Source: Rhynchopus sp. YZ270_cl-10 (Eukaryota). From it: a stretch of 64,000 nt of DNA. Below, piece by piece: positions 19,401-49,842 of this stretch. The position numbers and the translations under genes were made by a program. Each line of letters starts with the position of its first letter. Positions within the stretch are counted from its first letter, which is position 1. The stretch spans positions 1,736,001 through 1,800,000 of the forward strand of contig OZ037834.1 in assembly GCA_964035575.1 (NCBI GenBank). Reading direction: 5' to 3'. The notes below the pieces were generated by a model. That model was not told the origin of the DNA. It saw only the letters and a list, made by a program, of their open reading frames with translations, and did no database searches.

Positions 19401-21359
19401 ATCGCCGTCTTCCTTATGGTGTCCGGGATTGGCATCATTGGAGTGCTGACGGCGTCGATGGGCGAGAGTGTGCGCGACTCCGGCATCGACAAGAGCATGC
19501 TGAATGATAAGGTGCGTCGTGTGCAGCAAGGCAAATGGCGGCTTTCCCTAGAAGTCCTGCGGTACTCCGTGCTCTACAACCCGATACTAGCGCTGTTCAA
19601 GCCGTACGAAAGGGGGACCTGCTCGCATCCGCACTGCCTTCGCTCGTCGCGTGTGATCACTGCGGAGGACAGCGTTGTGACGGTGACGTATCAGAACTCG
19701 AGGTACCATGCGTCGTGCTTTCGATGTGCCGACTGTGGGAAGACCCGCACTGAAGCGGACGGTGCGTGCTGGGTGGTGCCTGAATACGCGAAGGCGAACC
19801 AATCTGTGAAGCGCCGTCGCCGCACTGCCTCTGTCCTGGGTGCGGCGTACAAAGACACGGGGAGTGCAACCACGGCGTCTGTGTTCCTCCACAAGCGCTG
19901 CCTCCGGCGTGCACGTGGCGGTGATCACGCCGAGGTCCAGCCCAGCCCCTGCAGCGATAAGTCTGCCATGCGCACCGAAGACGACGCCGCCTCGACCGTG
20001 GACTCCATCATATCCCAAGCAAGCACCCGCGAGTCTGAAGGAGCGATGCTCATCGAGGAGCTCTCCGTGCAGGGCCTCTTCGGCGTAGCTGAGCGCTACA
20101 ACGGTTCCTACACACGGCGGATGGCGGGGAATGAGTTCAGCCCGGTGCTCTTTGACCACGATGTGTCGGGGCTTGCCATTATCACCTACGACGATGGGCA
20201 ATGGCAGCTTTTGTTCCGTCTTTCAGACCAGATTGAGACGTGCGCTGCGTCGTCGAAGTTTTTGGTTGGGGTGTGGGCGACGCCGACGGAACTTTCAAAA
20301 CTGTACGGGACACCTGTTGTGGAGGACGTTGGCTCGCAGCTGCACTACTGGCACGTTGTGTACGACCCGCTGGACATGCCCGTACGCAACCTTGTCATCA
20401 ACTATGCCTCACACCGCACACGGCAACAGTTCTCCAACCTCCTCGAGAGCCTCACCGAGGAGGGCAACGCCTCCCAAGGTGTCTCCATGGGGATGGGCAA
20501 GTTTGGTGCTGCTGTCGACATGCCGCGCCGCTCCACCACCGCAGAGCATATACAGTGCATGGAGCGGCTGCGCTACCAGATCAAGGTCGTCACCGAGCTC
20601 GACGAAAAACGAACAAAACTCCGCACACCGTGCGAGCCCGGCGAGAAGCTGACCCTCCTCCTCCGCACCCACAAGCTCCGAGAGAGCGGCAAGGTGACCA
20701 GCTTCGACCTCATGCGCGACCACCTTGAGTACCTCATCTTCAAGAAGAACGCCACCCGGCCGTGCGGCACGTCCCTCGAAAAGGTCTTCGCCATCCAAGC
20801 CATGCAAGAAGCCTCCCACGCAGGCAACCGATACCGCACCGACGACCAAGGCCTGGCGGCAGAGATGCGGCCATGGGACGAGAACGACCTGGACTGGACG
20901 GACACCGTGGAGTGGACCATGCATGAGGTGGAGCGCTGTCTCTGCGACCACGGTGTGGACCGGCTGCCACAGTACAACAGTGTACGCATCGAGCTCGAGA
21001 ACCTGGTACTGAGTTACGACAGGGTGTTGATGTGCCAGTGGGCGTGGCAGCATTTATCTTGGAAAAACTGGCAAGAAGGTGCGGTACGTCCCCTCAAGCT
21101 GCGTGTACAGCTCACCGACATGCCCGTCCCCCCAGGTGGCCGCACCCAATACGCTCAATACGAGACCTCCCTCCTCGACCCCCTCGCAGACAACCTCGAA
21201 CGCCATCAGCTCGAGACCGGCAAGGAGCTCGCCGCCTCCTCCCTCCTCCACGCAAGCAGCACCAACTCTGCGAACATCCGCCGTGCAAGCTCGATGGAAA
21301 GCGTGATGACAACTGGAATGGACCAGAAATGCACCCCCATGGGAAGAACAAGTTTTTAG
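16437..21359 (+). CDS. Voltage-gated K+ channel with a large ectodomain and LIM-like Zn finger, ~1516 aa; join(16437..18440,18590..18685,18862..19095,19143..21359)
   Basis: Three phase-0 GT-AG introns give a continuous frame. Signal peptide, extra TM helix, S1-S3, S4 ARLIRVLRIFKMFRVVRLYHR, pore VTVTTIGYGD, S6, then CSHPHC...YHASCFRCADCGK...HKRC. Confidence 0.92.
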
Positions 21360-23736: not shown

Positions 23737-26700
23737 ATGTCCGAGCTTTTTAAAGCCATGGTGCGACTGAGCAATGGGACTGATGCGAGTGGCTTTACCG
23801 CGAAGAGTGACGGTGTGACCTCCGTTTTGAACAGGGTATGGCAAAAAAAAAAATTGCACCACAACGGGGTTTTCAGTAAAAAGCCGCGGTAAAACTTACT
23901 AAAGAGGGGGGTTTTTATTTTAAGGTGACTAAGCACGAGAGGCTTAGGATCATCTTGTAAACTTTTCTTTTATTTTGATGGTGTTGCGTCGTTTTTCTAG
24001 ACTCCTGGGTGTCGTTAACGCTGCATCTTAATACAAACTGTTCTATCAAAAGGGGTTTCCTTTAGACACATCTTCACTCTTTTTCGTTTATTTCACAACG
24101 CCACCCTGCCCCGTACCCACAGAACCAGCTCCTCACCTACGGTGGTGTGGTGACCGACAAGGTGTGGGGCCTGAATCTAACCACACTGAAGTGGGTGCAA
24201 TACCAATGCACGGGGTGGATCCCGCTGGCAAGAACCTTTCATTCCGCTGCAGTCTATGGCCAGCATATGGTATGCAGCTCACTTTCCGTTCTGTGGTGAG
24301 CGTTTTTGTTTTTTCGGATGGGGGAATGACTGTGTGCCTGCTTACAGTTTCCCTGTAGGCAACTTCCAAACACAACACTCCGGGGCTCGATATCCCGTTT
24401 AAAAGACAGCGGTGCTTACACAGCTTGGCAACTACACTATTTCAACAATTCTTCTAAAACATAATACAACTCCTCACACAGCTTGTCTACGGCGGGGTGT
24501 TGGAAGGTCTTGCCACCGAACCCGACTCCTCACCTTACTACGAACTGGACCTGGAGACGTACGACTGGATGCGTGTACAGACCTCTGGGGAGGCACCGGG
24601 GGTGCGTGCGTATCACACTGCGGTTGTGCATGGGGGGCGGATGATTGTCTTTGGTGGGCAGGATTTGTCACATGGTCCGGACCATGCGGTCACTGCCGCC
24701 GATGTGCAGCAGGCGAAGGCGGGGGGCTTCTTTGACCTCTTCGTCTTGGATATTGCGTCGCGCACGTGGTCGCGTATAGCCGTTGCACAGGAGGCACCCA
24801 TGCTGTGGGGGCACAGTGCAGTGCTCTTCAACAACTACATGCTTGTCTACGGCGGCTTCGATGTCACACCCGAGGAGGCCAGCAGCGGGGTCGTCACCTC
24901 TGCACCCGACGCGCCACCGAGCTGCTCCCTCAACGAGAAGGTCTACATCCTTGACCTCACGACGAATGAGTGGAAGATCTCTACCCCGTCCCCCCACGCA
25001 CCACACCCAGTACCACGTGGTCTCCATGTTGCAGAGGTGGTGGGGGCAGAGCTGCTCATCTTCGGTGGCATGACCTTCGACGACGCAGGGCGTGCCATCA
25101 ACGTCAACGACGCGTGGGTCTGGGACATCGCGATTGGCCGCTGGTCGCAGGTGGAGTTCTGCATTCCCTACTGGCCGAGCAAGCAGCTTCTCAGTGCGGT
25201 GCACGAAGGTCGCCTCATGGTGTGCAGCGACCTCACTGCGGTTCACGTTCTCGACTTCAACGACCGCCGCAAAGGATGGGTTAAGTACGCCACCGACCCT
25301 AGCCTTATGTTTGAAGACCGTCCTCAGCCACCACTACAGATCCCTGCCAATCCCATCCTACCCCCTCCAGCAGCGACACCACCGGTTGAGACACCGGCAG
25401 TAGTAAACACATCGCCGATGGTGTCGCCGGCAAGGGTGGAGGCAACCCCGGCGCGGTACTCTCCTGAACCAGCAACGTTGACACCACCGTTGCATCCACA
25501 GCCACAACCACAGCCACAGCCTCCACAGGGTTATTATGAAACGCAACCACAAAGACCTGTCAGACACATTGCGTCTCCTACCGTTCCTATGGTCGCACCA
25601 TTGCCGCCGGCGCCTGCATTAGCAAGAGCGCCGCCTCCACCGGGGCCTAGTCCAAGAGCACAGCAAGCGCAGGAGGAGGCAATGGAAAGACAGCGTATGC
25701 TACTGGAGGATGCGCGCAAGGCAAGGCAGGAGGAGGCGGTGCGGAAGCTGCAGAGGGAGATGAACACCTTGCAGGGTGAGTTGGGCGACCTGGCCGCGTT
25801 GAAGGAGAAGCTAGGTACGTCGACGCTGGCGCACAATGCGAACATCGGAGGCCCCTCTGTGTCGCCGCATCGTACGCACAACGTTGCATATCCTCCAGTC
25901 CCCTTGGGGGATGATCCCAGAGGGGCCAACCACTCCCTCCAGGTCAACGCCTTGACGAGCTATCTCGATAAGCTGCAAACACACCAAAAGTCTGTCATGC
26001 AGGAGCAAAAGAAGCGCCACAACGATTACCTCGGGGATCTGAACGACACGCATGCGGAGCATGTTAAGATGCTGAAACAGCGTGCAGACAGCCAGATCAC
26101 CGCGCAGCAGCAGATTGAAGCCATTTCGCAGACAGTCGACGTTGAGGAAAAGCTTCGCGAACAGATGGAAGCGATCCAGAAGACATACGCCTCCATGATG
26201 GAACTGCAACGCGAGCCCGAAAAGCTTCCATCACGCACACAAACACTCTACCCCGACGGTGCGGTGCCCATGGTGGAGATGCTCGGACGCCTCTCAAAGA
26301 TCAACCGCCAACCTATCGTCGAGCCTCAACGCGGCTGGGGTCCTCAAGCAAACTCTGCACCCCCTCCACCCGGCTACGCATCACGCGCCCCCTCCGCTTC
26401 AGTACCTTACAGCACCGTCCCCGCATCACCCATGGCTATCCCCCAGGTCTACCCACCTGCCCCAGCACCCACCCTACATACCTACCAGACCGCCCCACTA
26501 ACAAGCCTTCCCGCAAAGCCTCCAGGCAACCCCATGCTGGCAATGCTTGGCAAGACCGCAACTGGAGGCGCGTTTCCGGTGCCACAGACAGTTCCATCGA
26601 CCCCGGTTGGTCAAATGGGGGCAGGTGGACCGATAGGGTACGGACCTGGAGGGGTACCACCTGGGGGGCATGCGGATTTGATCAACCAAAAGGCAAGCCA

Positions 26701-26974
26701 TCTGCAGGATATGCGTGGCTCCCTCCAATCCATGCGGGACACAGTAAAGTCACCGAACACCTGGGAGGATGCGAAGCTCAGCCCCGCACGCTACTCCCGC
26801 GCCTCCTCCAGTCCAGGGGCATACTGGGAGAAGCTCAAAGGCATCATGGGTGACGACTACGTCGCAATAGAAGGCGACGGTGTCGGCAACATGGGCAACC
26901 TCCTCTCCCCTTCCCACTCAGGGTCGCCACTCCCAAGGGGCGACACCTCCCTAGAGGCTGGGTATCGAATGTGA
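23737..26974 (+). CDS. Kelch-repeat beta-propeller protein with Pro-rich and coiled-coil C-terminus; join(23737..23835,24123..24161,24482..26974)
   Basis: RAYHTAVVHGGRMIVFGG, WGHSAVLFNNYMLVYGG and RGLHVAEVVGAELLIFGG Kelch motifs. The two upstream exons are inferred from phase-0 GT-AG junctions and are less certain. Confidence 0.88.
23924..23956 (+). repeat. Hairpin repeat family A copy in Kelch gene intron 1
   Basis: GGTGACTAAGCACGAGAGGCTTAGGATCATCTT. Confidence 0.9.
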
Positions 26975-27210
26975 GATAGAACCAGCTTTTTTTTTTTTTT
27001 TGCGAGATCTGTAGACATGGCACATCTTGATATTTTGTGCGAATTTTAGAAGACTTCCTTTCCCCTCCCCCTGCCCCGTCTCCCTCCCAAAAAAAAACCA
27101 TGTATTTTCTGTAAAATGGCTGAATAAGATAGTGGGAGGGTGTTGTTTTTATCCTTTTCCTCCCCTGACATCATGTAACAACTCATCTCACAATACAGGG
27201 CCACAACACG

Positions 27211-30200
27211 ATGGCTGGGGCAATCGCCCTCGTCGTGCTTGCGGTTGTCGGTGATCTGCCTATATACTCAGACTTGACACCGCCGGCGCCGTATGTTAGT
27301 GTGAACAGCACATGGAACACTTCGAATTTTGCGTCGAATTTGCAGAGGCCGTTCCCGACCGGGCAGTGGTGGACGGCGTTCGCAGACCCAACGGGCACTG
27401 TAGACCCTGTGATCAACGCACTGCCCCTGCTTGTTAAGAGGATTGAGTGTGGGTTCGCCTTGGCACCCCCGACACTGACGTTTTCTAATGTGAATCGTGC
27501 TGCGTCGCACAGCTTCACCGACGACGTGACAGTGCGGGTGAGTACAAGCGCAACCGGGTGTGCGTCGTCGATCACCGGATGGGATTCATACTCAGTGACG
27601 ATGCTGCAGAGCGTGCCGCAGGGGTTGAGTGCGGGTGACGGGATTGAGTCGATCTTCGCGCGTGGGTCACCCTTCGCGTCGTTCAGGGCTGTGGGAGGTA
27701 CGTTTGCGGAGATCACCTTCAAGGACCGCATCCGGCAGGTCTCGAATGTGCAGATCAACGGTGCAGTGCCCGTCACGGCAAGCATGCTTAACATCACCAC
27801 AGAGGAAGGCGACGCGTGGCTCGTGTTGCTCCCACAAAAGACGCAGCTCACGATCACACGCACCAGTGTTGTCTACACAGAAGCAATGGACGGCTGGGTG
27901 CGTATCGCATACATCCCCACCACAGGAGGCTCGATCGCTGCCGCGTCCGAGTACCTCGTTGAGCACGGCAGCTGTGTCGCCCAAGGTGGTTCGCCCAACA
28001 CAGACATACGCGGCACAACACTGACAGTGGAACACAAATGGAACGGGGCAGGCAACACCTGCAACCCGCTGATGCTCACTGCGCCCCACCACAGGACATT
28101 CTGGAAAGACACGTGGTCGACTGCGTGGCTCAGCAGCCCGCTGCAGTACGAGACGCTGATGGGGGTGCTCATGCCTGCGCCCGCACGCTTCACGTCGTTC
28201 ACGCTTGCGCATGACGTTGTGGCCGGGTTTGACGACCTTACCACACGGGCGACAAACCTGCAGCTGTGCGAGGAGTACTTCCTTCACAACAAGGTGCTTG
28301 TGGACGATGCGTACCTCCTGGGCACCGTCCAGACAGACTCGAAGAACGCAACCGGAGAGGACGAATCCCTTCGGGTCAAGAGTCAGGAGCTCTACGGGCT
28401 GGCGAAGACGTACCGTGTGGCACGCCGTCTGAGTGCAGTGAAGATGGGACAACGTCTGCAGACGCGGATGTTTGAGGTGCTGTCAGGCATGACTTCGCTT
28501 GCTGCATACGACTCGACGTGGGGTGGCATGGTCATCTCGCCCCCAGACAGGCCCCTCTCCGAGAGCATCACCGACCAGTACGAGAACAACACAAAGATCT
28601 TCGGACGCATCCTCTATGGGTACGCAGAGCTCTACGGCACCCCGCCTGGGAGCGTCAAGCCTGCACCGACACCGCCAGCCTCTATCTCCGTCTTCATCAC
28701 GGCGCTGCTGCGCACGGTCATGTTCTCCGGCACCTCCGATTGGTACCCACAGCTGCGCAACTACGACTTCTACACGGCGCTGTCCTTCTCAGGTGGGCTT
28801 GTGGCCGACACCGAGGAGGGGAGGGTGTTGTCGGCCCCGTCAGATGCGCTGATTCAGTGGCAGGCTGCACGCGATGTGTCGACGCTGCTGGGCATTGCGA
28901 ACGCGACACAGCTGGCAACGATTCTGTTCACAATGGAGGCTGCCTCTGTGGGGGAGTACTGGCTGGCGCTCAACAGCAAGGTGGGAACGTCTTCTGTTGC
29001 AGTGGCGACGTACGGAACGATGAGCCTGTCGTCGCAGGACCAGCTCACAACACTGTCGCCTGTGGGCGAGCATCTGACGTCCCTGCGGACGGAGATTGCT
29101 TTGGTGGGGCGTACCACACAGATCATGACGAACCTGCTGCAGACGGTGCCGTCGACACTGCAGGACACAGCACGCCCCCTCGAGACGAACACATACGACC
29201 TCACGCTCCTCGGCATCATCAACGGCACGCACACGCTGCAGCTCCTCGAGAACGGCGTCAGCGTGAACTACACAGTCATGGAGCCGCTCTTCTCCATTGT
29301 TGAGTACGCCGTGCTCTCCGCCGACCCCTTCGCACTCATCCCCTGCAGCGAGATGTTCAGCACCTGGAACGGCTCACTCCCACTGACAGTGGTCGGACGC
29401 CAGCTGTGGTACAAAGACTCCTTCAACTACCAAGTGCGCTCCATCGACTACGTCCCCGGAGTGATCTACCGTGAGCCCACCCAGACCAACATCTACGGTT
29501 CTGTGTACGAGCGGATCTTCAAGCGTGACTTCCCGCGTATCAAAGACGCAGGGTTCAACACCCTGAAGGTGCGGTGGTTTTCGAGCAAATCTGTGTTGGG
29601 GATGACGGAGTTTGTGAACCTTGCGGCGGAGTTCGACTTGAACATTATTTTCACGTTTTCGGCGAGTGAGGATGAGGTGCTGAACAACAGGCATTTGACG
29701 GAGCAGCGTTTCATCGATGCGATGGATGCGATGGCCGACAAGTCAAACGTGATCATGTGGAACCTTGAGTCGACCTCCTTCGTGAGCATCTCTGTCGACG
29801 GTGCCTACAACTACCTGACGCTGTTCCGCCAGCTGCTGCGTATCCGTAACAAGTACGACTACTACCTGCGCCGCCCTCTGGCCCTCTCGCTTCTGCCCTT
29901 CTACGCCGATGCCTTGGCCGTGGGTGGACTCAACCCTGTCGACATTTACACCGACGGAGTTGAGATTGTCATCATGACGGTGTACGAACTGAACCTGACC
30001 TCCACACGAGAGCTGCTCGCAAAGGTCGCCCACCCCATCCACATCAACCTGCAGTCGGACTCGTACCACGGGATCAACGAGACGCAGGATGCTGTGTACC
30101 GTTCAGAGTTGCTGTTCAACCAGACGCAGATGGTGTTGGCATTGCACCACGAACACGAGGTGTGTGGTGTTGGTGTCATTGAGTGGGTGGACGAGTGGTG

Positions 30201-33200
30201 GCGTGGTGAGGACTCTGACTCTGACAACGACTGTTCGGACCCATCTCCCGGGCGTCACAGCCACTGTGCGACGCGCGTGATCGACTTCCACGACGGAGAG
30301 ATCAACCTTGAGCACCAAGGTCTGCACTTCCAAGAGGACAAGTGGCTGCTGCACTGCATCTCCCCGAAGCCGTCCTACAACGCTGTGTCGCGTGCGCTGA
30401 CCGGCACTTCTGTGGACCACGGCGAGTCGTGCCTCTTCATCCCCCTCGACAACTTCTGGGCCTGGTTCGTCATGATCGCGTCTGCAGCCTTCTTCATTGC
30501 AGGTATCGTCCTCTGCACCTCCATGCGTGTCCTTGCCTCCCGCAAGAAGCGCCGTGCCGAGAACAAAGGTGCCCAGTCGGGCACCCGCTGGCTCCAACCA
30601 GACATCTCAAAGATCTCGCGTATCATCGTGAAGCGTACCTGCACCCTCCCGCACACACAGACACCCTTCCAACGCATTGCCATCCAAACCGAGTCGGGTC
30701 TCTCCTCCAAGGACCCAGCCCCGCTCTCGGGGGAGTGGGAAGGCGAGGTGCTGTGGTCCGAGCTGGACCAGGTGCGCGAGCTTGGGGTGTTCCTCCAGTT
30801 TTCGGCCCTGCCAAACAATATTGGGTACACGATCCAAGGACAGGATGTTGGGAACAAATACAAGATCACTGGACAGACACGGTCGCTTGATGTTGCGCAG
30901 ACCTCTGGGATGCCGCGTACGAAGGAAGACGGGTCGAAGCTGCTTGTTGAGCGCTACTTGGTTGAGTTTGTTGCGAAGAACATGATCCCGGACCAGGACG
31001 GTGGGGTGGACGAGGACCTTGAGTTTGTTGGTGTGTGGGAGAAGTGGGAGTCGCTCCCGAACGAGGACGGCGCCACACGCATCTCTGAGGTCATTGCTGG
31101 CGGTGCTGCTGCAGCCCCTACCATCCCACGCGGCATTCAGACTGGGTGCAGAGTCATCGACCACGGCGAACCCTTCGTCGAGTTTGCCGGATCCTTCAAA
31201 CTCAGCCCACAGCCCGAGATCGACCCCTGGTGTTACAACAGATGGCAGTGTGTACGTCTCCAGCTGGAACGCCTGCAGATGCTTATCTACGACGAGATGC
31301 TCTGCCAAGGCCGCTGGGGGACAGAGGCCAAGTACCAAGAGACCGACGCTGCCTTTGACTACGCAGTGAGCACCCTGCACTACCGTTACATGCATTCTTT
31401 CTACGGATGGTGCCACGCGCAGGGGCAGGTCGGCGGGATCCTCGACATCCCAGACGAGGCGCAAGAGAAGCGGACCGACGAGCAGCTGACGGAGCTGCTT
31501 GCGCTCTTCACGCTGTGGCAGCTGGGTGAGCAGATGACGCTGTTTGCGGGACACTGGCTGAGTTGGAACTTCCACTACTTCATGAAGTTCAAGAAGTTCC
31601 CACCGACACACGTGATCAACGATGGGCGGCACTTCATGGAGACCAACCTCACATTTGACGACCTGAACGAATCATGTGCGTTGATGCCGTACTACGATGT
31701 GCCGCATCAGTGTAACGAGTACTGCCAGGAAGTGTGCTCGATTGCGCTTGAGGAGAAGGGCCAGCGTGCGATGCCGAAGCTGCTCCTTCCCGACGGCAAC
31801 GTCGACAAGAACGAGACCATGCGCTACCCCTTCTTCAAGACGTTCCGTGAGCCGCGCAAGTGGGGTGTCGTGTTCTACATGCTGCACGATGGGTTCTTCA
31901 TCCTGCACACAACGATCCTCATGTTCTTCTTCTGGGCACTTGTCGTACACTTCTCCGACGACAACGGCAGCCACGCCCTTGGCGAGGTCATGGAGCGCTC
32001 CTACAACGTGTGGAGTGGACAGCCGGACTCAATGCGCTTCATCTTCCTGGTGCTGTGCAAGATCGACTTCTGGATGGTCATCATCCACGAGTCGCTTGAT
32101 CTGTGGATCCTTTCTGGTATCACACAAAGCCCTGCGCTTGGTGTCCTGGGGACACGTGTGTGCAGCATGTTCGGTCTGATGGTGTGCTACTGCCGGTGCT
32201 GCTGCAAGCGGCAGAGGGGCGCGACAGACATCCGTGAGATCTCATGCCAAACGTTCTGGACGGACACGACGTGTCGCCGTATCCGACTGCGTCCGTTCTT
32301 CCAGCTGCGGTGGTCGTCGTACGTTGCGCTGGTGTCGTTTGCCATCTTCTTGGGTGAGTCGCTCTTTGAGAACGACGCAACCGTGTCGAGCATCCGCATC
32401 ACAGGGCACCTTCTCGTCCGCATCGGCTTCCTGCTGATCTTCAACGCCGTCATCACACTGTGGCCGCACAGACTGCACGGTTCCCCTGTACCGGCCGATG
32501 GGACGTCGCGCATCAACCACACTGCGTTGGTCATTTCGTTCTTCTTCTGGCTTCTCATTTACTCAGGCGCGTCGGTGTTCATGGCATGGACGATGTACCG
32601 CACGGAGAATACAGGGTTTTCGTTCTGTGACTGTGATGGGTTGCAGTCGGACATTGAGGACCACGGTGCGACTGAGTTTGGACGGGACTTACTGAGCAAG
32701 GTGTACTCTTGCGTGCGTGACCAGCCACGTTGCTTTACGGCAGTGTTTTTCATCTGGCTGTCGACGTGCGTGATGTTTGCGATCTCTGTCCACGGGGTGT
32801 TCCTGCTGGGTGTCGTCTTCCTTGGCGGTGTGAAGCACCTTCTCATGCAGTGGCAGAACAAGAAGTCGCGCAACCTGCGCTCCCACAAGATGGAGACGAA
32901 GTTCATCCTCTCCGCAATCAACGTCAAGCTGCTGTCCTTCTCAGACCCGCGAGACAACAAGCTTGCTATGCGCGTCTGGAACAGAGTCATCGAGGTCATG
33001 CACGAAGAGGACCTGCTCACATCATACGAAAGCGAGACCCTGCAGATCCACCCGCATATCGTCGACATCCAGTTCACACTCGAAAACGCCTTTGCAAAGG
33101 AACGCATGTCAGGCTTCCTTGAGTACCTTCAGAGCTCTACTGAGTTTGACGAGACGTTAGGCCCCGTGCAGTGCTACCCATCTGTGTCGGTGATCGTGCC

Positions 33201-36200
33201 TGTGTACGGTGAGAACGTCCTTGCCGACAAACGTGCCCTTCGTCTCAAGGCGCGTGGCGACCACCAGCAGCAGTCGCAGCTGCACTTCCTCGTTGAGTGC
33301 TACGAAGACGAATGGAACAACTTCATCGAGCGCTGTGTCAATGAACAGCGTCTCTTCCGTGGCGCGCTGCTTGAGGACCAGATTGTTGCCCTGCTGCAGG
33401 ACAAACAGACCCTGCAGGAGGAGTTCGACTACATCAAGAAGCGTGCCCTCAAGCCTGACCAGCGTCTGCGTGAGGTCTGCGGGAAGCGTGTTCTCGAGCT
33501 CTTCCACACGCGCCCGAAGCTCTTCAGCGACGAGGAGTTCGACGCTGTGTGGTGGTGGGCGTCGATGCGCATGCAGACTGTGGGCCGCACCATCCGTGGT
33601 ATCGAGCGCAACCGTGAGGCGATGCGCTTCCTTCTGGAGCTTGAGTCGGACTACACGCAGTCTGCGACCATCACCCCGACGTACATCGACATGATGTCTT
33701 CGGACAAGCTGCAGATTGTGATGGCCCTCCAGCGCATGTCGAACAGCAAATGGTACGACTCCAACAAAGAGGCGCTTGCAGCTGCGTGGCGGCGCTTCCC
33801 TAAGATGCAGGTGGTCTTCGACGTGGAGACGGCAGACTACCGCATGGCACCCGAGGTGTACCAGAAGAGCACGTACCTGATGCAGGACCTGTGGGACTGC
33901 ATGGAGTTCGCCTCTTGTGTTGCGCTGTGGGACGTCACGACTGAGGACTGGTATGTGAACCAGGTGGTGGGCAGGCGTCTGCCGCTGCGTATGACTAAGT
34001 CGGACCAAGTCAAGTGGAGCATCCCCGGCCCCATGCAAGGCAAGTCCGTGAACCAGGCACACTGTCTCCCCTTCTGCAAGGGGCAGGTCATCCAGACCGT
34101 CGACTGCAACCAGGACGGCTACTTCGAGGAGTCCCTCAAGATGCGGTCCCTCCTTGGGAAGTTCTTCCCGAGGGAGGACAGAAGGTGGTCGGAGTACAAG
34201 GTGGTGGGCCACCCGGAGTACGTCATCACGATGCAGTCGGGCACAGTCGGACGCTACGCAGGGTACGCTGAGTACATCTTCAACACGCTCTTCCAGCGTG
34301 TGCTCTCTACCCTTGGGGCACGCATGCACTACGGGCACCCCGACTACTTCGATGCCTCATGGGTGGTCACGCAAGGTGGGCTGTCGAAACCCAACCCCCG
34401 CCTGAACCTGAACGAAGATATCTTCGCCGGCTACCACATCAAAGCCTCTAAGGAGCACACCATCCACATGGACGACATGAAGAGCGGAAAGGGGCGTGAA
34501 ACGAACTTCGACGGCGCAATGGGTTTCGAGCAGAAGCTTGGCATGGGTGCGGCAATGCAGTACCGTTCCCGCGATGTGTTTGAGCTGTCGCGGTACTCAA
34601 ACTTTTTGGAGCGGCATTCGATTTTCTTTGGGTCGATTGGGATGTACGTTTACTTGGGACTTGTGTTCTCGCAGATCTTCACCACGATGATCCTGCACAT
34701 CTCCTTGCAGCTTGCAGGGAAGACCGAGTACGAGCTGAGCGGGACTCCTTACGGAAGCGAGTGGATGCTTCAGGTGACGTTGCTCGAGGCTCTGCCGCTT
34801 GGAGTGCAGCTTATCCTTGACTACGGCGTGTGGGGGCTGTTCCAGTGGTTCTGGGACTTCACCGGTGTGACGTGGTTCTTCTTGTTTGTATTCCTGACCA
34901 AATACCAGGCGTTCTGGGGCTCTGTTGTGCAGGGCAACGGGACGTACGTTGCTACAGGCCGTGTGGACCCGCTGTACCGCCGTTCATTCCGCCACATGTG
35001 GCGTCTCTACTCGCACTCCCACTTCATGTACGGCTCTCTGCTGCTCGCATTGGTAGTCCTCTTCATGGACATCACCAGCCTGAGTGGCTGGCGTGCGTTC
35101 ATTCGCTCGATCTTCCATTGGATGGTTGCCTTTGCTTGGATGGTCACACCATGTCTTTTCAACCCCTCTCTGACGATCCGTGGTTTGTTGAAGGACATTG
35201 TGCGGTTCTTTTTGTGGGTGTGGGGCGACGCCATTCAGAAGGTGAAGGGAACAGAAGACAGCCATACCCTTGGGGAGGGGCAACACAACGACAGAGGTGG
35301 CGAGAAGAAGAAGCTGGGTGAACTGTTCAACACTCTTGTCCGCAAGAACCGTGGTGATGCCGAAGGGGACGAGGCTGCGCAGTCTGGCGCCTTGGTGAGC
35401 AAATCACAGCGTGACGATGCGAAGACGCTTACTGCGTCACCATCGACCGAGTTTGGCGACAAGGACTCCTTCTTGGGCCTGCCTGCTGCAGAGGAGGAGC
35501 AACTAGAGAAGGACTTTGGTGTGAACGTGCTTTCCGAGCAGTCCTCTGAGGTTGTCGACGACTTTGGGGAGATGGAGATTGGCGACAACAAGCCGATTGC
35601 TGCTTCTACCGAGCATTCCTTTTCTCCACGCAACTTGCGTGGCTTTGAAGAATTCTACGACGCTGATGCACATCGCCCCACTGTGGGCACACGCCTCAAG
35701 AAGTTCGAAGACGACGACGAAGGCCTACGCGACTCAGACGAGCTCACCATGGAGCACTTCATCGACCGCGGTGTCGACCCCCGCACCCTCGACAACCTTG
35801 AAGACGTTTTCAACAAGCTCGATGCACGCAATCAATACCGTGGTCTCATTGGCCCCGAGCTCATCTTCCTTGGCTTCCTCAGTCGTGGTATCCGAGTAAA
35901 GCCCAGCGACGTCGAAGAGCACCTCCACGCACTGAACGTAACGGAGGTGACCCTCGAAGAGTTCTGTCTGATCTACTTCATGGTGGAGGGCACCAGCGCG
36001 CAGCTGGACAACTATGGGATTGACTATGCGATTGAGAATCTGCCGCAGGAGAAGTACGACTCAATTCTGAAGCAGCAGGAGGAGATGAAGAAGTACCGTC
36101 AGTACGACGACCCGCGCGATTTGCAGGCAGAATCCTACATTCAGTTTGCCTACGCGCTGAGACGCAGCAAGGCGGTGCGTGAGGTGCAGTTCTACGACTC

Positions 36201-39200
36201 AACACACAACCTGGACCGTGTCCGCACAGAGTCTCTTCTGCACCACTACAAGGTGGCGCTGGTTCTCGAGCACAGAGGGAACTCTACCACCGGCCGCTTC
36301 CTCTGGTGCCTCGCAACCATGGGTCTCTGGCTCTTCGCATACTTCGCACTGTGGCAGGACATCCTCTGGGAGGTGTTCTACTTCATCCTCATCTTCGCCT
36401 GGGAGTACGTTGTGTGCCTCCCCAACGTCGTGCCCATTGTGATCCTCACCAAGGTATTGGTGCACGTTTTTGTGTTTGTACGTCTGATCCTCATGCTTGG
36501 ACAAACAAACGTCTTCTTCCCAACGATCTTTATGACCTATTGGTTTGTGCACTCAGTCATTGCGTTGAAGCTCTCCTTCTGGTCCGCGTATGGACCGTAC
36601 ATCATGGGGCGTGATGCGTTCCGTGCGAAGCAGATTGACCAGCAGAGGGAGCGTGCGCTCTTGATGTTGCTGAAGGACTCCCGCGAGCAGTACCTCTTTG
36701 CGTTCAGCTACTATGTGTTCTGCAGGCGGATCCTTGCGATGATCATTGTGACGTTCCAGTTCCTCTTCTGCATCTTGGTGTTGCTGGTGAAGGCGATTAT
36801 TGCGCTGATCAGCTGGCTTATTTGGAACGTTGGGAAGTACTTTGCGAGACGCAATGCTACGCAGACGACGTACATCTCTTCAAGAGGGAAGGCGGAGGAG
36901 GAGAACAAGCAGCGGGGGCGCACCTCCTTTGATATGATGACACAAACCGACGATGGTGCCACGGGACGCGGCACGCATATGTGGGGTGAGGAGATGGGGA
37001 CACAGATCTACCTGCCTGGCGACGACGGCTTTGAAGATTTGATGCTTGTCCCGCCGGATATGCAGTACCTCCCGCAGCTCGGCTTTGGGCTGCCTGACGG
37101 CTTCAACCCTGAGGACTGGCCGCCAGAGTGGCTCGACCTTGCCTTCCCTGACGGCAAGGCGGCCTCGTGGCTGCCCGTTGCACTCAACGACGATCTCCCC
37201 CCAGCAGAATGGCTCAAAATTGCTTTCGGTGATGATGAGCTCCCTGCTGACTGGCTTGATGTCTGCCCACCCGACGAGCTTGGCTGGGAGTGGCCAGAAA
37301 AGCCGCCGAAGAACTGGCCTGAACGTCTCTCCTGGCCACCGCCACGCCCTGGAAAGAAGCAAACTGATGAGATTGACCCGGAGTGGCTGAAGTTCCTTGT
37401 TGCTGCGGACGACCTGGACCCGGAATACATCAAGAAGGCGTTGAAGAACGACCTGCCTGCGGCGGAGTGGCTGAAGATTGCGTTTGGTGGAGACGACTTC
37501 CCTGCGGAGTGGCTGGACATTGCACCGCCACCGGGTGGGTTGTGGCCTACCGAACCGCCACTGAACTGGCCCAAGGACGCACCATGGCCGCCACCACGAC
37601 CAAAGGCTGCCAAGCCCGGCGAACTGGACCCCCACTGGATCCGCAAGCTGATGGACCCCAAGAACGACGACACCCTCCGCAAGGTCCTCGAACAAGAGGA
37701 CGAACCGGTCGACTGGCTCAACCTCGCTGCCGGGAACGACCCCCCCGCAGACTGGCTCAACTTCCCAGGCGGCGGTCTTCCTAACAAACCTCCAAAACTA
37801 TGGCCCAAGCGTCTTCCTTACCCTCCTCCTAAGGGCAAAGACTTGCCAGATGACTTACCTGTTGATTGGCTTAAATTCGGGCTTGACAAAAAGGTGGATG
37901 ACGACAAACTGATTCACATTAGGGATCTTGACTTGCAGCCGGTTGATTGGTTGAAGCTTGCGTATGATGATGATGACTTGTCTCCTGAGATTCTTGGGTT
38001 TGCGCCGGAGCCGGGAAAACCTTGGCCTGAGAAGCCTCCACCGGGGTACCCAAGCGATGCACCGTGGCCTCCACCACGCACCTTCCTGGACGATGACGAC
38101 GATGATGTTGATGTAAAGTGGCTCAAGCTTGCCTTCGACGACGACGAACTCACCCCAGAGATGCTCAAGGCCGCTGTCGACGGTGACCTCGACCCCGCAG
38201 AATGGCTTAGGATCGCTCGCGGTGGCGACCCCAACGCAGAATGGCTCAACATGATCCCCGAACCTGGCAAGCTCTGGGCAAAACGCCCACCAAAAGACTA
38301 TCCCAAAGAAATGCCCTGGCCACCACCGAAGGTTCCAACAAACCCTACCAGACGACCTGTTGAAGGAGGGGAAATCCCTCCGGAATGGCTTGAAATTGCG
38401 TTAAATGATGGAGAAGATACTCTTGACCGCGCGCTTCGTGGTGAGTTGGATCCTTTCGATTGGCTCAAACTGGCGCGTGGTGCGGATCCTGACCCGGAGT
38501 GGCTGACATTGGGAGAGGACGGTGAATTTCCTTCAAAACCGCCTGCAAACTACCCTGCAGGACTGCCTTGGCCACCACCCAAGCGGAAGAAGGAGAACGA
38601 CGTATCTGCAGAGTGGCTTGCCTTTGCCATGGAACACCCCGACCTCGACGATGCTGGCAAACAACGTGCCCTGGATGGCGATCTCGACACAGTAGAATGG
38701 CTTAACCTCGCGGCCGGAGGCGACCCTGACCCAGACTGGCTCAAACTCGACTCTGATGGAGAATACAAAAAGGAGCGTCCAAAGAACTATCCTGCCAATG
38801 CACCATGGCCGCCACCAAAGCCAAAATCCGCTCCAGGAGCAGATGTACCAGAAGCCTGGCTGAACATTGCAATGAACTCTGACGCACCCATCGATGTCAA
38901 ACGACGTGCGTTCGAGGGTGACCTGCTCCCTGCAGAGTGGTTGAAGCTGGCGACGGGGGATAACCTTGACCCCGATTGGCTGTCGCTTGGACCTGATGGT
39001 GAGTTCCCTTTGGAACGCCCTGATAACTATCCTGTGGAGCTTCCATGGCCGCCGCCGAAGAATGCGGACTTTGATTTGCCAATTGATTGGATAAGGTTTG
39101 CGGCACTGCATCCAACAGCGCCGCCAGCATTGAAGAAAAAGGCAATGAACAATGACCTGGACCCTGTAGAGTGGTTGGCGTTGGCAGCAGGGGAAGACCC

Positions 39201-42200
39201 TGATGCGGATTGGTTGAAGCTCGGACCGGATGGTGAATACCCAACAGAACGTCCAAAGAATTATCCTCCAAACGCACCATGGCCGCCGCCGAAGGTAAAG
39301 GCACGCCCCGATACAGATGTCCCGCAGGAGTGGATTAACATCGCAATGAACGCAGACGCGCCGCTCGCAGTGAAGAAGCGTGCGATGTACGGACAGCTCC
39401 TGCCAACGGATTGGCTGCGTCTCTCTACAGGTGATATGAGTCCGCGGAATTCTTGGATGTCCTTCGGAAAGGATGGAAGCTTTGCAAAGCAACGTCCAAA
39501 GGATTACCCAGCGTCTGCACCATGGCCGCCACCGAAGCCTCGTGCAGGACCGCTCCCAAATTGGCTTGCATTCGCAGTGCAAAACCCGGACATCCCAACC
39601 GACCTCAAGAAGCGTGCCCTCGATGACGAACTCGATGTGATTGATTGGCTGCAGATTGCGGCGGGGGACAACCCGGTGGACCCGGATTGGTTGAAGTTGG
39701 GACCGGATAGGGAGTACCCTCTGGCTCGTCCACAGAACTACCCGCCGTATGCTCCGTGGCCACCGCCGAAGGCGAAGGCAGCACCTGGCGCAGACGTGCC
39801 TGAGGAGTGGCTCAACATCGCAATGAACGCAGACGCAACGCTGGATACAAAGAAGCGCTCTCTTGGGGCAGACCTCTTACCCGCAGAGTGGCTCAAGCTT
39901 GCAACAGGAAACGAACCAGACCCACGCTGGCTTGCCCTCGGCCCTGATGGCGAGCTTCCCAAGACACGCCCACCAGGCTACCCAGCGCACCTCCCATGGC
40001 CGCCTCCAAAGCGTCGTGGTGGCGACCTCCCGATCGACTGGATCAAATTCGCTCTCGCCAAACCGGACCTCCCGGAGGCAACCCGGAAGCGTGTTCTCTC
40101 GACACCTGGTGATATCCCCTCGGTGGAGTGGTTGCAGATTGCGGCTGGGAACGACCCGGTTGACCCGGCTTGGTTGAAGTTAGGACCGGACGGTGAGTTC
40201 GCGAAGGAGCGTCCAAAGAACTACCCAGCTGATGCGCCGTGGCCACCTCCCAAGCCGAAGACAAAGGAGGCAGCGAGCATTCCACCGGAGTGGCAGATGC
40301 TGCTGACGGATGCAGACTGCCCGCCGGATGCGAAGCGACGTGGCTTTGATGGAGACATGCTGAGTGCAGAGTGGCTGCAGATCGCGACCGGGGACGACCC
40401 GGACCCGAGCTGGCTGTCGCTTGGCCCAGATGGAAACTTCCCCGACGAACGCCCTGCGACGTACCCTGCAGACAAGCCGTGGCCACCACCTCCTCCTCCT
40501 CCGGTTCTGAAACCACGTACAAAGAAGCGTTCTACGGACTATGACCTGCCTGCAGAATGGCTCCAGGTGGCGTTGGATAAGAAGGTACCCGACGACACCC
40601 TCCGCCGTGCGCACCGTGGTGACATCAAACCGCAAGAATGGATCCGCATTGCGCTCGACGGCAAGGACCCACCCGCCACCTGGCTCTCTCTCGGTCCCGA
40701 TGGGAAGTTCCCCGCCACCCGCCCAGAAGGCTACCCAAAGAACCTCCCATGGCCGCCACCTGACGGAAAGAAGGGCGTTGCAGACGCGAACCTCCCTGCA
40801 GAGTGGCTGAAGATTGCAGTAGACCGTGGTGCATACGGCATGATCGACGACGCTGCGAACGACAAGCTTGACCCTGTGGAGTGGCTCAACCTTGCTATGG
40901 ATGGCAAGCAGATCGACCCAAAATGGCTCAAACTTGGCCCCGACGGAAAGTACCCCAAACACCCCCCTGTGGGCTATCCCAAAAACGTTCCGTGGCCGCC
41001 ACTGTACAAACGCCCTGACGAGGATCTGGACGCAACCATGATGAACGCACCTGAACGTCCCTTCGATTTGCCTCCAGAGTGGCTGGCGATGGCGTTGGAG
41101 CAGAATGTGCCGCTGGAGACCATTGAGCGTGCGAAGCGTGGTGAGCTGTCTGAGGTGGAGTGGCTCCGCATTGCGAACAACGGAGACGAGCCGCCACCGC
41201 TGTGGATGGACAAGAACGTGAAGGGCGACTGGCCGGCGGAGAGACCTGCCGACTACCCTGCGGATAGGCCGTGGCCACCACCGACCAATGCAAAGGACTA
41301 CGACCTGGACCCAGAGTGGCTTGCGATTGCCTTTGAAAGGAAGGCAACCAAGGCACAAATCAAGCGTGTCATCGAGGGCGAGATGCTCCCTGCAGAAATC
41401 CTCGAGCTTGCCCTCGGTGAAGACTCAATCAACCCAAGCTGGCTCACCGTCGACCAGAACGGCAACTACGCTGAGTCACGCCCTGCAGACTACCCCCCGA
41501 ACCTGCCGTGGCCCCCACCAAAGACAAAGGCAGCCACTACAGCGATTGCCGCCAGCGAAGTCCCCGTGGACTGGGCATCGTACACCCTAGGCCGGAAGGA
41601 CACCGAGAAGAACATGAAGGACCGCGCCCTTAAGGGTGAGCTCCGCCCGATCGACTGGCTCAAGCTTGTCAATGGAGGAGAGACGCCGCCTGAGGAGTGG
41701 CTTGATTTGAGTGGCGGGCGTCCTCCGGGGTACCCGCCGAATGCTCCGTGGCCTCCACCATCACAAAAATTCAACCCGAACTGGGAATACAAGAATAAAT
41801 GGATTAAATTTGCTTTGGCGCGGTGCGGCAGCAAGGCGGTGTTCACAGGCATGCAGAACGAAATGAAGCCCGAGGATTGGTTAACCCTCGCACGTGGCGG
41901 CCAGCCCCCTCCGAAGGAGTGGCTTCAAACAAACGCAGACGGCAACTTCCCCGAGAAGCCACCGGAGGACTATCCAAAGGACATGCCTTGGCCACCACCA
42001 CAGACCACCCCGGCTTTGATCCCTGCAAAGGAGAAGGCTTCGCCTGCAAGACGCAAGAAGCGTGCACCTACCATTGGAAAGAAGCAACAGAAGGCTGGGG
42101 TCAGCTTTGCCCCGAGCGGCAGTGCTATGAACGACGAAGATGCGGGGGTACCGACAGAATGGTTGAATCTCGCTTTCCACGCTCAGCCGCCGATGGACGA

Positions 42201-45200
42201 AGACAAGCTGAAGCTCGCGTTGAAGGGGGAGCTTCTCCCGCGGGAGTGGCTGCAGCTTGCGGCTGGTGGTGGAGAGATCCCTGCAGAGTGGTTGAAGCAT
42301 ATGCCCAACCCTGGAGAGGCGTGGCCAGCACAGCGTCCTGTAGGATACCCAGGGGATATGCCGTGGCCGCCACCGAGGACAAAGAAGGGAGATCTGTCGC
42401 CTCCGGTGTCGCCAAGCAGAAACCGTGCGCCGCCAAAATCGGATCAATTCCTGTCAGCGCCTGGAGGCGGGCGTGACGAGGAGAACCTTCCGGCAGTGTG
42501 GCTCAACTTCGCCTTTGGGAAGATCTCGCAGGATACTGGAGGGGGGCAGAAGGAGCTTGCCGCATCGCAGCTCCCGGACGTCATCAACAACGACCTGCCG
42601 CCAGCGGAGTGGCTCAAGATGGCGAACCGCGGAGAAGAGATCCCCGAGTCCTGGCATGCCATCATCCCAGCCCCAGGTGAGTCCTGGCCGCAGCTTGCAC
42701 CAGAAGGATACCCCATCGAAGCGCCTTGGCCACCTCCAAAACCAAAGACGTATGTTTCCTTTTATGAGATCTGATGTGAGAAGTGAGTCAGAAAACTCAA
42801 AAAAAAAAAAGCAATAAGAACCGGCTTTAAAGGGAGGTTGTTAAACTAGATTTTGTGTGATAACGATGATGGGGTGTGAGAGAGAGGAAAAAAAGCCGCA
42901 CCTACCCATGATGTAGTGGTGAATGGTGAAATATGTATGGGGGGTGTGCCAGAGGGTTGTCTCGAGGTGGACGGCAATGAAACATAGTGGAGGGAGTGGT
43001 TCGTGTTCTGTGGGTTATTAGGTGCACTAAATGAAACAGATTATAAATGAAAACAACACACCAAAAACAGGAACGGATTCGCATGCGAGGTGTGGGGAGA
43101 AGAGGGACCGACCTCAGCCAGGTCGAACCAGATCCAAGACGAGTATGTCAAAAAAAAATTTTTTGCTGCGCGATAACGAATGTGATCACGGTGACTAAGC
43201 ACGAAAGGCTTAGGGTCATCTTATTTAGCTCAACACTTTGCACCTTTAGAATTTTGGGCGACATGATATGGGAGGGCTTTTGTCAATTCCAATAAACATT
43301 ACACACAACAGACTTATGATTGGAACTGTCCCCAACGTGCAAGGATATGCCCCTGGTACTGAGGAGCCCAAGGAGAAGGTATGCTCTCGCTCCCTCACCC
43401 TCACCCCCACTCTCTACGAGCACGGTAAATAGTCGTGACTCAGCACGAAATGCTGCTAACTTTTTCTTCCTTTTTTTGCGCCCACGAAGGTGTCTGCAGG
43501 TTAGACTTTTTTTCCCTTCAGACTGTCATCAGACCATCATACACATATCATCCACCACGACAACAGAAACCGGCAGCCTGGACGAACAACGGTCTGCAGG
43601 AGTTCCAAGACCAACTCATCATGGGGTCGAACATCGCCCCGCAAGAGGAGCAGGAGAAGCCACGCAGGCCAGAGGAGTCGCACCTCATCTACTTCAAGGA
43701 GAACGTGCCGGGGGATGTGTCCAAGCCGGTCCATTTCGTGGACGCTGAAAACTTCCAGAACGTATGCCACAAAGCTTGACACTAGGTTTTGATTCATCGG
43801 TTTTTGTTTGTGTGTGTTTTTTATTTTTGGAGGCTGACAAAGATTCGTAGGTTTTCATAGCAGCGTGTCTCTTTAATTTTCACCCCACCACAGATTGCCG
43901 AGTTCCGTGCAGGAGTGCGCCACTTCTTGCAGTTCCGCGGACCTGTCGACCAGGTTCTTCTCCAGGTCAAGAAACGGGGTGACTTCACTGACTTGGTATG
44001 AATCAAACCCTGCTTGCTGCATCCCCTACCCTTGGTAGGGGATGACACGTTTTCTTCATTTAGTGCGCTGCACAGCATGCAGCTCTTTTCAATATTTTTT
44101 TTGCTGTGTTTGGCCTCACCGAGCACACCTTATTAGGATCATCCCTTTGTTTCCTGATTGTACTTTAGTCACACAACACCCCACCTTCAGGAGGAGATTG
44201 AAAACCACCACCAATGGCCTCTGCGCACATCGCATCAGAGCCCTGTGTTGGTGACAATCTTTGATCTGTACAAGCCGCGGATGAAGAAGCAGACGCTGAA
44301 GGTGAGGGGGAACCAGCTGAGGCTGGGGCTTTCGACGGATATTAATAGGCGTGCGATGACTGCGGCTGGGCGGAGGGACAACACGCAGAAGCCTGCTGTG
44401 CGGAACTTGATGAAGCAGGCATCGTCTCGCATGCTGAAGGCAGCGGCAGCAGCACCCGTGGTCGCTCCGTCGCAACGTGCACGCCACGGCAGAGTTGTCC
44501 AGGAGGACCTGGCGACCGTGCACGAGCCCCGCTCCTCCAGGCGCACGAACTCCCCCAAGAAGAAGCCCGCCGTCGCCAAGACCAAGGCAGAGTACTCAGA
44601 CTCCTCCGATTCCGAAACTGCAGGCGACGTCTTCGTCCCAGACATTGGTGTCACCTTAGAGACCGCAGAGCAGCACCGCAAGAACGTTGCAACAAGCGGA
44701 CTCAAGGTTGCAGCTTCGGTAGGCCCTGCACATGAGGGAGGCATCCGGGCGGGTATGTTATTTGGTTTATTTTCCCCCAATGAAGTCAACCCCCCTTTCC
44801 CCCCTGCATATCCGTTGATATGTTTTGCACCTTTTTTTGTATTCAAGATGAGCGGATCTCAGAAAAAAAATATTCAAAAGAGGAGACGACACTGATGGAC
44901 AAAACCCCATCTTTCGATTGAAAATATTATCTTACTCATGTTACCAACTGTCAATCTTCGCTAACCCTATGCATATTTCCCCTCATAGGTGACGTGATCC
45001 TCAGCATGAACGGACGCATCATGAACACAACCAGCGACGTCACAAAGCTTGTGAAACAGCTTAAGAAGGAGGAAAACAAAGACCCGCTTACTGTTGTCGT
45101 TAACCGCAGCGGTGCGGGTGGACGCGCGACACTTCTTGTCAAGATGTTCAACGAGCTGCCCGCGAAGACTCAACTTCAAGCAGACTTTAAGCTGCCCACT

Positions 45201-45671
45201 TTAGGGGATATGTTCAAGAAGATGGCAGGCAGCAGTAGTCCTAACATCACAGCGAACCGCTCGGCGACTGCGATTCCTATGATACAACCACCGACACCGA
45301 GGGGCATTGTACCGCCACCTGCTACCACGAACATGGCGTCGAGCAGCAGTCTCAACATCCCTATGCAAGCTGCACCGGGTCTGACCCCTGCAGGAGGGGG
45401 TGCCCAACCAGGTCTGGTCTCCCCGGCCATTCCTCGGAGAAACTCCTTCAACCCGTCCGTCCAAAGGCGGGGCTCCATTGCGATGTCCCGACGTGGTTCC
45501 AACGCTGGCATGCTCGGCATGCCCCGTCCTACAGTGATGGAGGCTACACCGCGTACAATTCACGGAATGCTCGCAGCACCAGAAGGTCTAGACGCGCAAC
45601 CCGCACCCCCTTCCGCCCCTCAACCCCCTGAGGGAAGCATTTCGCTGACCCTCCCAACCCCTAGGGAGTGA
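27211..45671 (+). CDS. FKS1: Giant multidomain 1,3-beta-glucan synthase (GT48, FKS/callose/paramylon synthase family), ~5715 aa; join(27211..42749,43312..43378,43567..43761,43894..43995,44191..44752,44989..45671)
   Basis: GT48 motifs WASMRMQTVGRTIRG, GKSVNQAH...QTVDCNQDGYFEESLKMRSLL, RMHYGHPD, LNEDIFAG, GKGRE, YVATGR, LYSHSHF. N-terminal GH81-like and TIM-barrel domains. Five GT-AG introns preserve the frame to a PDZ motif (GPAHEGGIRAGDVILSMNG). The symbol is family-level only. Confidence 0.93.
43190..43222 (+). repeat. Hairpin repeat family A copy in glucan synthase intron 1
   Basis: GGTGACTAAGCACGAAAGGCTTAGGGTCATCTT. Confidence 0.9.
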
Positions 45672-49355: not shown

Positions 49356-49842
49356 AAGCGTTTGTGTGAGAGGGGGCAAAAAAAAAAAACACAGTGGAGA
49401 TTGCACAACTGTGGCAACACAACCGAGACAGCTACACTACTCCAACAATTTTTCAAAAAAAATGGATTTTTTTTTTGAAACCCTATTCTTTACAGAATGG
49501 GGTGGATTGGTTTCCCCTTATATGGTATAGGAGGGTAATATTTTACAAGATGACTCAGTACGAGAGGCTTAGGGTCATCTTATAAACTTTTTTGCTTTTA
49601 CAATGCGGGCCTGGATAATTTTTGTTTGCCATTTAGTGCCTGCATCCCAGGGGGGTGTTTTGCACTACTTCACCTTTTGTGTTATACCTTAATGATTCTC
49701 TTAAACGATAACAAGACACTGCAACCCCACCCCCTTTTCTTTTGACAGTTTCCAACACACGGCACAGCATTCCCCAAAACTGAGTACCTTTTGCAGATAA
49801 CGGAATCCAACAGAACCTTTTGTTTTATAGATGGAAACCCGT

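Follow-up and report, generated by a model that had tools for sequence, protein, structure and literature searches.

Diplonemids are marine single-celled flagellates. They belong to the most abundant marine microeukaryotes, and Diplonema papillatum stores paramylon, as reported in the accessible portions of PMC10161547. Here we analyse a window of 64,000 nucleotides from Rhynchopus sp. YZ270_cl-10 (GCA_964035575.1, contig OZ037834.1, positions 1,736,001 to 1,800,000), whose forward strand carries a long gene for a putative GT48 beta-1,3-glucan synthase. In front of the synthase part the predicted protein has two glycoside hydrolase (GH) folds, a GH81-like domain and a TIM barrel, and canonical catalysis has very probably been lost in both, to judge from their sequences. 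The features of the gene are listed below in positions of the window, with residues in amino acids (aa) and E for the expectation value.

27211..42774, plus strand: open frame of the GH81-like, TIM-barrel and GT48 beta-1,3-glucan synthase gene; the predicted first exon is 27211-42749.
43071..45671, plus strand: six further predicted exons with GT-AG introns (43071-43142, 43312-43336/43355/43378, 43505/43522-43761, 43894-43995, 44191-44752, 44989-45671).
27211..27267, plus strand: hydrophobic N-terminus (aa 1-19), a likely signal peptide from hydropathy; the N-termini of the orthologs are hydrophobic too.
27253..29346, plus strand: GH81-like domain (aa 15-712), a complete fold with the catalytic motifs replaced (PF17652, hhalign, predicted model, Foldseek).
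29356..30456, plus strand: clan GH-A-like (beta/alpha)8 barrel (aa 716-1082) with a Cys-rich C-terminal extension, closest to GH157/GH158/GH72.
30460..30516, plus strand: transmembrane helix (aa 1084-1102) with RKKRR after it; hydropathy predicts that both GH-like domains lie on the non-cytosolic side.
33028..35190, plus strand: GT48 catalytic region and the membrane helices after it (aa ~1940-2660), with FKS-type motifs kept (PF02364, E 5e-88).
37078..42749, plus strand: Trp/Pro-rich unit of ~80 residues ending in PWPPP, in ~21 copies.

The open reading frame 27211-42774 comprises 5,187 codons, and its first 1,085 residues contain all the motifs on which a first-pass annotation of this DNA had built its claims. 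Each was found in frame where it had been placed: FPTGQWW at 27352, RGSPF at 27661, YDSTWGGMV at 28507, YENNTKIFGR at 28579, RNYDFY at 28756, GRVLSAPSDA at 28819, RDFPRIKDAGFNTLKV at 29524, PIHINLQSD at 30034 and EWVDEWWRG at 30181. The stop of the frame probably sits inside an intron; the seven-exon model (six GT-AG introns) ends at 45671 and gives a product of 5,740-5,754 aa with a PDZ-like end, three splice variants being compatible with it. The C-terminus predicted by this model is ~52% identical to that of the D. papillatum protein (E ~1e-80). In each of two sequencing runs a single contig spans 26500-43188 and shows 0 differing letters; contigs from a second study span 26500-31917, again with 0 differences. 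One of the runs may be the source of the window itself. Since contigs from two studies agree in this way, the substitutions described below are real DNA, and an assembly or sequencing error can be ruled out as their origin.

Concerning the synthase, the PF02364 domain, the FKS-type catalytic motifs and the flanking membrane helices of family GT48 are all present, and yeast Fks1 and Gsc2 match the central part of the protein (E 2e-37 to 1e-36), the conserved motifs of the family lining up. From its family and from the paramylon of D. papillatum, the protein is likely a GT48 beta-1,3-glucan synthase, probably a diplonemid paramylon synthase. Two further stretches, one at aa 1331-1580 that we take to resemble FKS1 domain 1 and one that we take to resemble an EF-hand, had no Pfam match. 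Hydropathy gives 13 further candidate helices beyond that at aa 1084-1102, and aa 1-1085 contain 12 N-glycosylation sequons; because of the hydrophobic N-terminus, the helix with its RKKRR and these sequons, both N-terminal domains would face a lumen or the outside. A separate 12.5-kilobase contig of single-copy depth, seen in two runs, differs at 9 of 62 bases from the GT48 motif stretch at 34084-34145. Like D. papillatum, this genome may thus contain another GT48 paralog.

Relatives were collected in three ways. A word-based search with aa 20-1085 returned two full-length homologs, P0002 (57% identity, labelled Rhynchopus euleeides) and P0003 (44%, D. papillatum DIPPA_33377), no further homologs among shorter proteins and none for the barrel alone; a metagenome scan gave 127 pattern matches and 0 confirmed relatives. 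When 1.84 billion representatives were searched with a profile, 442 matched at E of at most 0.001, and the best 150 of these 442 comprise 7 fusions or fusion fragments, 9 matches to the barrel part and 134 to the GH81 part. The fusions among the matches listed are P0002, P0004 (Namystynia), P0005 (Artemidia), P0006, P0007, P0008 (Papus ankaliazontas) and the barrel fragment P0009; PF17652 and PF02364 are found together in P0005, P0006 and P0008, and P0007 stops before the GT48 region. The nearest relatives of the window protein are diplonemid proteins.

The GH81-like domain belongs to its family by sequence and profile homology, with the full beta-sandwich and (alpha/alpha)6 fold present. The Pfam model of the GH81 C-terminal part, PF17652, matches aa 492-588 below threshold (E 1.7e-5), and hhalign against a profile of 40 GH81 sequences aligns 508 columns with a probability of 100% and E 1.4e-43. 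The predicted model (mean predicted local distance difference test, pLDDT, 81.7; predicted template modelling score, pTM, 0.88; 66-row alignment) matches 12 listed GH81 chains with template modelling (TM) scores of 0.71-0.77 in Foldseek, a match that is not fully independent because the model's alignment contained GH81 relatives. Its three catalytic positions read as follows.

28582..28587, plus strand: E458-N459, with N459 at the position of the acid Asp, within an N-N-T sequon, and E458 at that of the preceding conserved Asn.
28831..28833, plus strand: S541, at the position of the GH81 catalytic Glu (CtLam81A E515; alignments and the PDB title 'Mutant E515A').
28843..28845, plus strand: D545, at the second invariant GH81 Glu; six orthologs have W, Y, D, A, Q and T, and E is found only in Papus.

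The Asp of the NDHH motif, whose column is occupied by N459 here, we take to be the GH81 general acid. We compared these columns with 82 stand-alone GH81 relatives (81 of the 134 GH81-part matches picked by length, and one cluster member), in which the NDHH Asp is present in 82/82, the NQES Glu in 80/82 and the second Glu in 82/82. The replacement of the catalytic Asp and Glu that the first-pass annotation had read from the motifs is therefore borne out by alignment, as N459 and S541, although in hhalign a one-residue gap, and not N459, lies opposite the acid Asp. Across the eight fusions the acid column reads N, N, N, L, G, Q, E, D, the base column S, S, E, T, G, T, S, E and the second Glu column D, W, Y, D, A, Q, T, E, so that all three catalytic residues are kept only in the Papus-labelled fusion; acid and base are both kept in 0/7 fusions of the diplonemid clade versus 1/1 with the Papus label. 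The acidic residues that remain near the catalytic sites of the two domains are E458, D545 and E853, none of them conserved across the fused orthologs, and for this reason E458 and D545 were rejected as a substitute pair. D455, which one pairwise phmmer alignment places as a shifted acid by means of a 4-residue gap, was rejected as well: it is not conserved, and two MAFFT alignments and hhalign do not give this placement.

The second domain has the homologous (beta/alpha)8 barrel of clan GH-A. Its model (pLDDT 80.8, pTM 0.85, 20-row alignment) is closest by VIA to LaGH157 (Z 27.2, root-mean-square deviation 2.5, 296 residues aligned), followed by GH2 (25.2), GH5 (24.6) and GH72 (24.4), and the top families in Foldseek are GH158, GH157 and GH72, with GH158 first. 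A 12-row barrel profile also matches LaGH157 (E 1.5e-15), the single barrel sequence found no match among the PDB sequences, and the Atlas groups the barrel with GH2_C/GH72-like clusters (score 0.94-0.96). Of the families first proposed for it, GH2, GH5 and GH72, the last is close, but the nearest solved families are GH157/GH158. In this clan the acid/base and the nucleophile come after strands 4 and 7, and in BuGH158 the removal of N136, E137 or E220 abolishes activity, according to the accessible part of PMC7157763. Our model has strand 4 at aa 847-853 and strand 7 at aa 943-947, and the substituted residues lie at the ends of these strands.

29767..29775, plus strand: E853-S854-T855, end of strand 4, opposite G-N-E; the acid/base Glu is replaced by T855.
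30046..30048, plus strand: N946, end of strand 7, the nucleophile position.
30058..30312, plus strand: D950, E991, W992, D994, W997, C1008, C1019, R1022 and E1034, after strands 7 and 8, a candidate glucan-contact surface invariant in 9/9 fused barrels.

Both the Asn-Glu after strand 4 and the Glu after strand 7 are thus replaced. The acid/base Glu is found in 0/8 fused barrels and the nucleophile Glu in 0/9, Papus included; in the four nearest stand-alone relatives that look intact, one of which is labelled Ca. Magnetoglobus, they are found in 4/4 and 3/4, respectively. The absence of the nucleophile had already been noticed in the motif PIHINLQSD and holds, whether N946 or, as in hhalign, a one-residue gap stands at the position, and the loss of the acid/base at T855 had been overlooked. 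E853 was dismissed as an acid/base, since it lies opposite the Gly of WxIGNE and the column reads E, E, E, T, D, N, D, G across 8 fusions; an equivalence of W997 with Tyr291 of GH158 was dropped too, the alignment giving no support. The earlier designation of both domains as pseudo-enzymes is consequently well supported by the alignments, the predicted folds and the orthologs, with the intact GH81 motifs of the Papus-labelled fusion as contrast.

Five stand-alone barrel homologs of 430-490 aa (P0060, P0077, P0107, P0133 and P0142, one of them labelled Arcella intermedia) lack both catalytic Glu (present in 0/5) and mostly end in a hydrophobic stretch. They are possibly part of a wider eukaryotic family of dead barrels.

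Trees of the GT48 region (7 rows), the barrel (18 rows) and the GH81 domain (48 rows) show the same branching among the fusions: the window protein groups with Rhynchopus, D. papillatum joins next and Namystynia after it; Artemidia, P0006 and P0007 make up another clade; and Papus lies outside. This agreement fits one old fusion followed by a duplication in diplonemids, and the branching places the source of the window likely among the diplonemids, close to Rhynchopus. Papus is a free-living prokinetoplastid, according to the consulted section of PMC8061765. We infer an ancient, single euglenozoan fusion in which the barrel was already dead and the GH81 domain was active and able to trim the product; GH81 catalysis would have been lost later, in the lineage from which the two paralog clades of diplonemids descend.

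The reading that we favour, with modest confidence, is that these two glucanase-derived folds, devoid of the canonical catalytic residues, are non-cutting accessory domains at the chain-exit side of the synthase. The cytosolic GT48 core would add glucose from UDP-glucose and pass the chain through the membrane, and both domains would be kept, by the helix at aa 1084-1102 together with the signal peptide, either in the storage-compartment lumen or on the outside of the cell. There the membrane-adjacent, well-conserved TIM barrel would likely contact or guide the new chain without cutting it, and the GH81-like domain, its cleft largely eroded, would more likely serve as a scaffold, a spacer or a folding or trafficking module. 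The frame is kept open across diplonemids and both folds are complete. Identity to the six orthologs is 66, 52, 42, 34, 34 and 28% in the barrel versus 56, 42, 30, 19, 20 and 17% in the GH81 barrel, and 89-48% in the GT48 region. Because the barrel is better conserved and has invariant acidic and aromatic residues, it is the better candidate for glucan contact: its binding of glucan may be put at an even chance, and that by the GH81 fold would be rather improbable.

Several points weigh against this interpretation. Both domain models were built with family members aligned, so that the fold matches arise partly by construction, and the assignments of catalytic positions rest on alignments and predicted secondary structure. 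DIPPA_33377 retains the GH81 base Glu, without the acid, and the acid column of P0007 is Glu in one alignment and Gly in a second; P0006 has Asp at the acid/base column of the barrel, and the nucleophile Glu is missing as well from P0076, one of the relatives that look intact. Within the barrel, the strand-2 Arg, the strand-6 Tyr and the aromatic residue before G1037 vary among the fusions, and since some active-site neighbours are lost in this way, contact of the barrel with glucan is uncertain. The history of a single GH81 loss depends on one fusion as the outgroup, with long branches and a support of 0.90, and the Papus label, we assume, stems from a predator's transcriptome, so that the sequence could be that of prey.

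The alternative that survives best, although we consider it unlikely, is that both domains are dead and neither contacts glucan, the two being kept for folding, stability, trafficking, oligomerisation or the binding of a partner. It would account for the residues common to the degenerate GH81 domains, which are mostly Gly, Pro, Cys and core, and for the variation of several neighbours in the barrel cleft; moreover, synthase partners in fission yeast have been proposed to give trafficking or stability (accessible text of PMC13612389). However, it does not explain the invariant acidic and aromatic residues after barrel strands 7 and 8, of which D950, D994, W997 and E1034 are common to the fused barrels and the intact-looking relatives, and both ancestor families are beta-1,3-glucan-specific.

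A second alternative is the function originally suggested, in which both domains bind glucan and the GH81 cleft templates a triple helix. BhGH81 binds three intertwined chains resembling a triple helix, as described in the available part of PMC8949617, the entire GH81 fold is retained here, and R538 is invariant in 8/8 fusions. On the other hand, among 36 polar or aromatic positions of the GH81 barrel, up to aa 584, that reach 80% conservation or more among 40 stand-alone proteins, the window protein keeps 13 and six other degenerate fusions 10-16, against 31 in Papus; the Trp (29/40) and Lys (30/40) of the C-terminal loop of stand-alone GH81 proteins are replaced by V598 and Y601, in a poorly modelled stretch; and the GH81 barrel is the fastest-changing domain. 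Of the Gly/Pro positions of the N-terminal part, 12/14 are kept. A retained fold around an eroded cleft argues against a triple-helix template in this domain. The N-N-T sequon at the acid position (28585-28593) is shared by the window, Rhynchopus and D. papillatum proteins (3/8 fusions), and a glycan at N459 could fill the former active site. We regard this second alternative as distinctly improbable; its glucan-binding or helix-templating role is only partly supported, being weakened for the GH81 domain and a better fit for the TIM barrel.

Least probable of all, with little chance in our estimate, is that one domain is still enzymatic through non-canonical acids (E991, D994, D950 and E1034 of the barrel, or E458 and D545 of GH81) as a transglycosylase or a trimmer in the manner of fungal Ghs2 next to Bgs3: the four barrel acids, among them E991 where the four intact-looking relatives have Ala, are invariant in 9/9 fused barrels and leave it a small chance, and synthase-remodeller coupling is known (PMC13612389, in part), but D950, D994 and E1034 need no new catalytic role because relatives with the canonical Glu pair have them too, D545 is not conserved, E458 occurs in at most 5/8 fusions, and the Asn, acid/base and nucleophile that are each essential in BuGH158 (PMC7157763, same part) are all replaced here.

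Returning to non-cutting accessory domains, a bolder extension, which we consider a long shot, is that eukaryotic beta-1,3-glucan synthases have in the dead GH157-like barrel an old, dedicated cofactor that guides chains at the membrane exit, fused to the synthase in Euglenozoa and stand-alone and membrane-anchored elsewhere, and that the fused GH81 domain is a chain trimmer, intact in the kinetoplastid and switched off in diplonemids. If this were true, the live or dead state of GH81 would set paramylon chain length and granule architecture. The control of chain length by GT48 synthases and the conversion of single chains into paramylon granules are poorly understood, and the same synthase with intact GH81 motifs (Papus label) or with dead ones (diplonemids) offers a natural experiment.

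Concerning the remainder of the gene and its surroundings, the PWPPP repeat has no Pfam match and no Atlas match; the motif is counted 7 times in the Rhynchopus protein, 16 times in that of D. papillatum and 0 times in those of Namystynia, Artemidia, P0006 and Papus. An interspersed repeat of ~35 bases lies at 23924-23948, 43190-43224 and 45941-45975, with weaker copies at 49549 and 556, and one copy falls inside a predicted intron of the synthase gene. Its 25-base pattern gives 3 matches versus 0 by chance, and its contig has a depth of ~145,000 versus 96 for single-copy DNA at 43189; a second repeat element lies near 44876-44939. Two neighbouring genes lie at 18646-21359 and 24497-26974; their products are an ion-channel protein carrying a LIM-like domain and a Kelch-repeat protein whose tail is Pro-rich. 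A 2,159-aa open frame at 57240-63719 has weak immunoglobulin/cadherin-like repeats (Big_9 E 8e-8, Cadherin_5, CshA_repeat) and likely encodes a surface protein.

The fusion itself is already on record as a table label: the D. papillatum supplement (Valach et al. 2023, PMC10161547, consulted in part) gives DIPPA_09258 as GH81-GT48 and DIPPA_33377 as GT48. The latter is an ortholog of the window protein, with 44% identity over the N-terminal 1,066 aa and 80% in the GT48 region, whereas the supplement rows mention neither the catalytic loss nor the TIM barrel. In the titles, abstract openings and passages searched, no account of dead GH domains in euglenozoan GT48 proteins or of the barrel was found; the main supplement of PMC10161547, Tanaka 2017, O'Neill 2015 and the 2020 Diplonema paramylon paper lie outside this scope and may bear on novelty, and the accessible part of PMC5745450 mentions neither GT48 nor GH81. 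A 'GH81-GT48' label in diplonemids need not imply glucanase activity, and a conserved dead barrel goes unrecorded in annotation. In Euglena, GSL2 is essential for paramylon synthesis (PMC6530250 and PMC8219788, both in part); no Euglena-labelled protein is found among the fusions with known labels in the matches listed, the GSL sequences themselves not having been compared.

Compared with the GH81 endo-beta-1,3-glucanases CtLam81A (6fop), RmLam81A (4k35) and BhGH81 (5t4a), the window domain has the whole fold (TM 0.71-0.77) and the structural motifs, but its acid Asp, base Glu and most conserved cleft-type residues are replaced and it is fused to a synthase. With LaGH157 (9fz9), BuGH158 (6pal), Gel4 and Gas2 the barrel shares the (beta/alpha)8 architecture, the D-x-W-W after strand 8 and a later E-x-x-G; it differs from GH157/GH158/GH72 by having neither the Asn-Glu after strand 4 nor the Glu after strand 7, and at ~14% identity its family is not assignable. 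Fungal Fks1/Gsc2 share the GT48 catalytic motifs, whereas their chains of ~1,900 aa match only the GT48 part of the window protein. The closest parallels in arrangement are the S. pombe Bgs3-Ghs2 pair, the oomycete GT48-GH16 fusions and fungal Ags1, where, according to the available text of PMC13612389, a glycoside hydrolase fold is likewise coupled to a glucan synthase at its exit side, on the same chain or as a partner. Those are proposed to be active remodellers from other GH families, whereas here two different folds are fused to one synthase and both are without catalytic residues.

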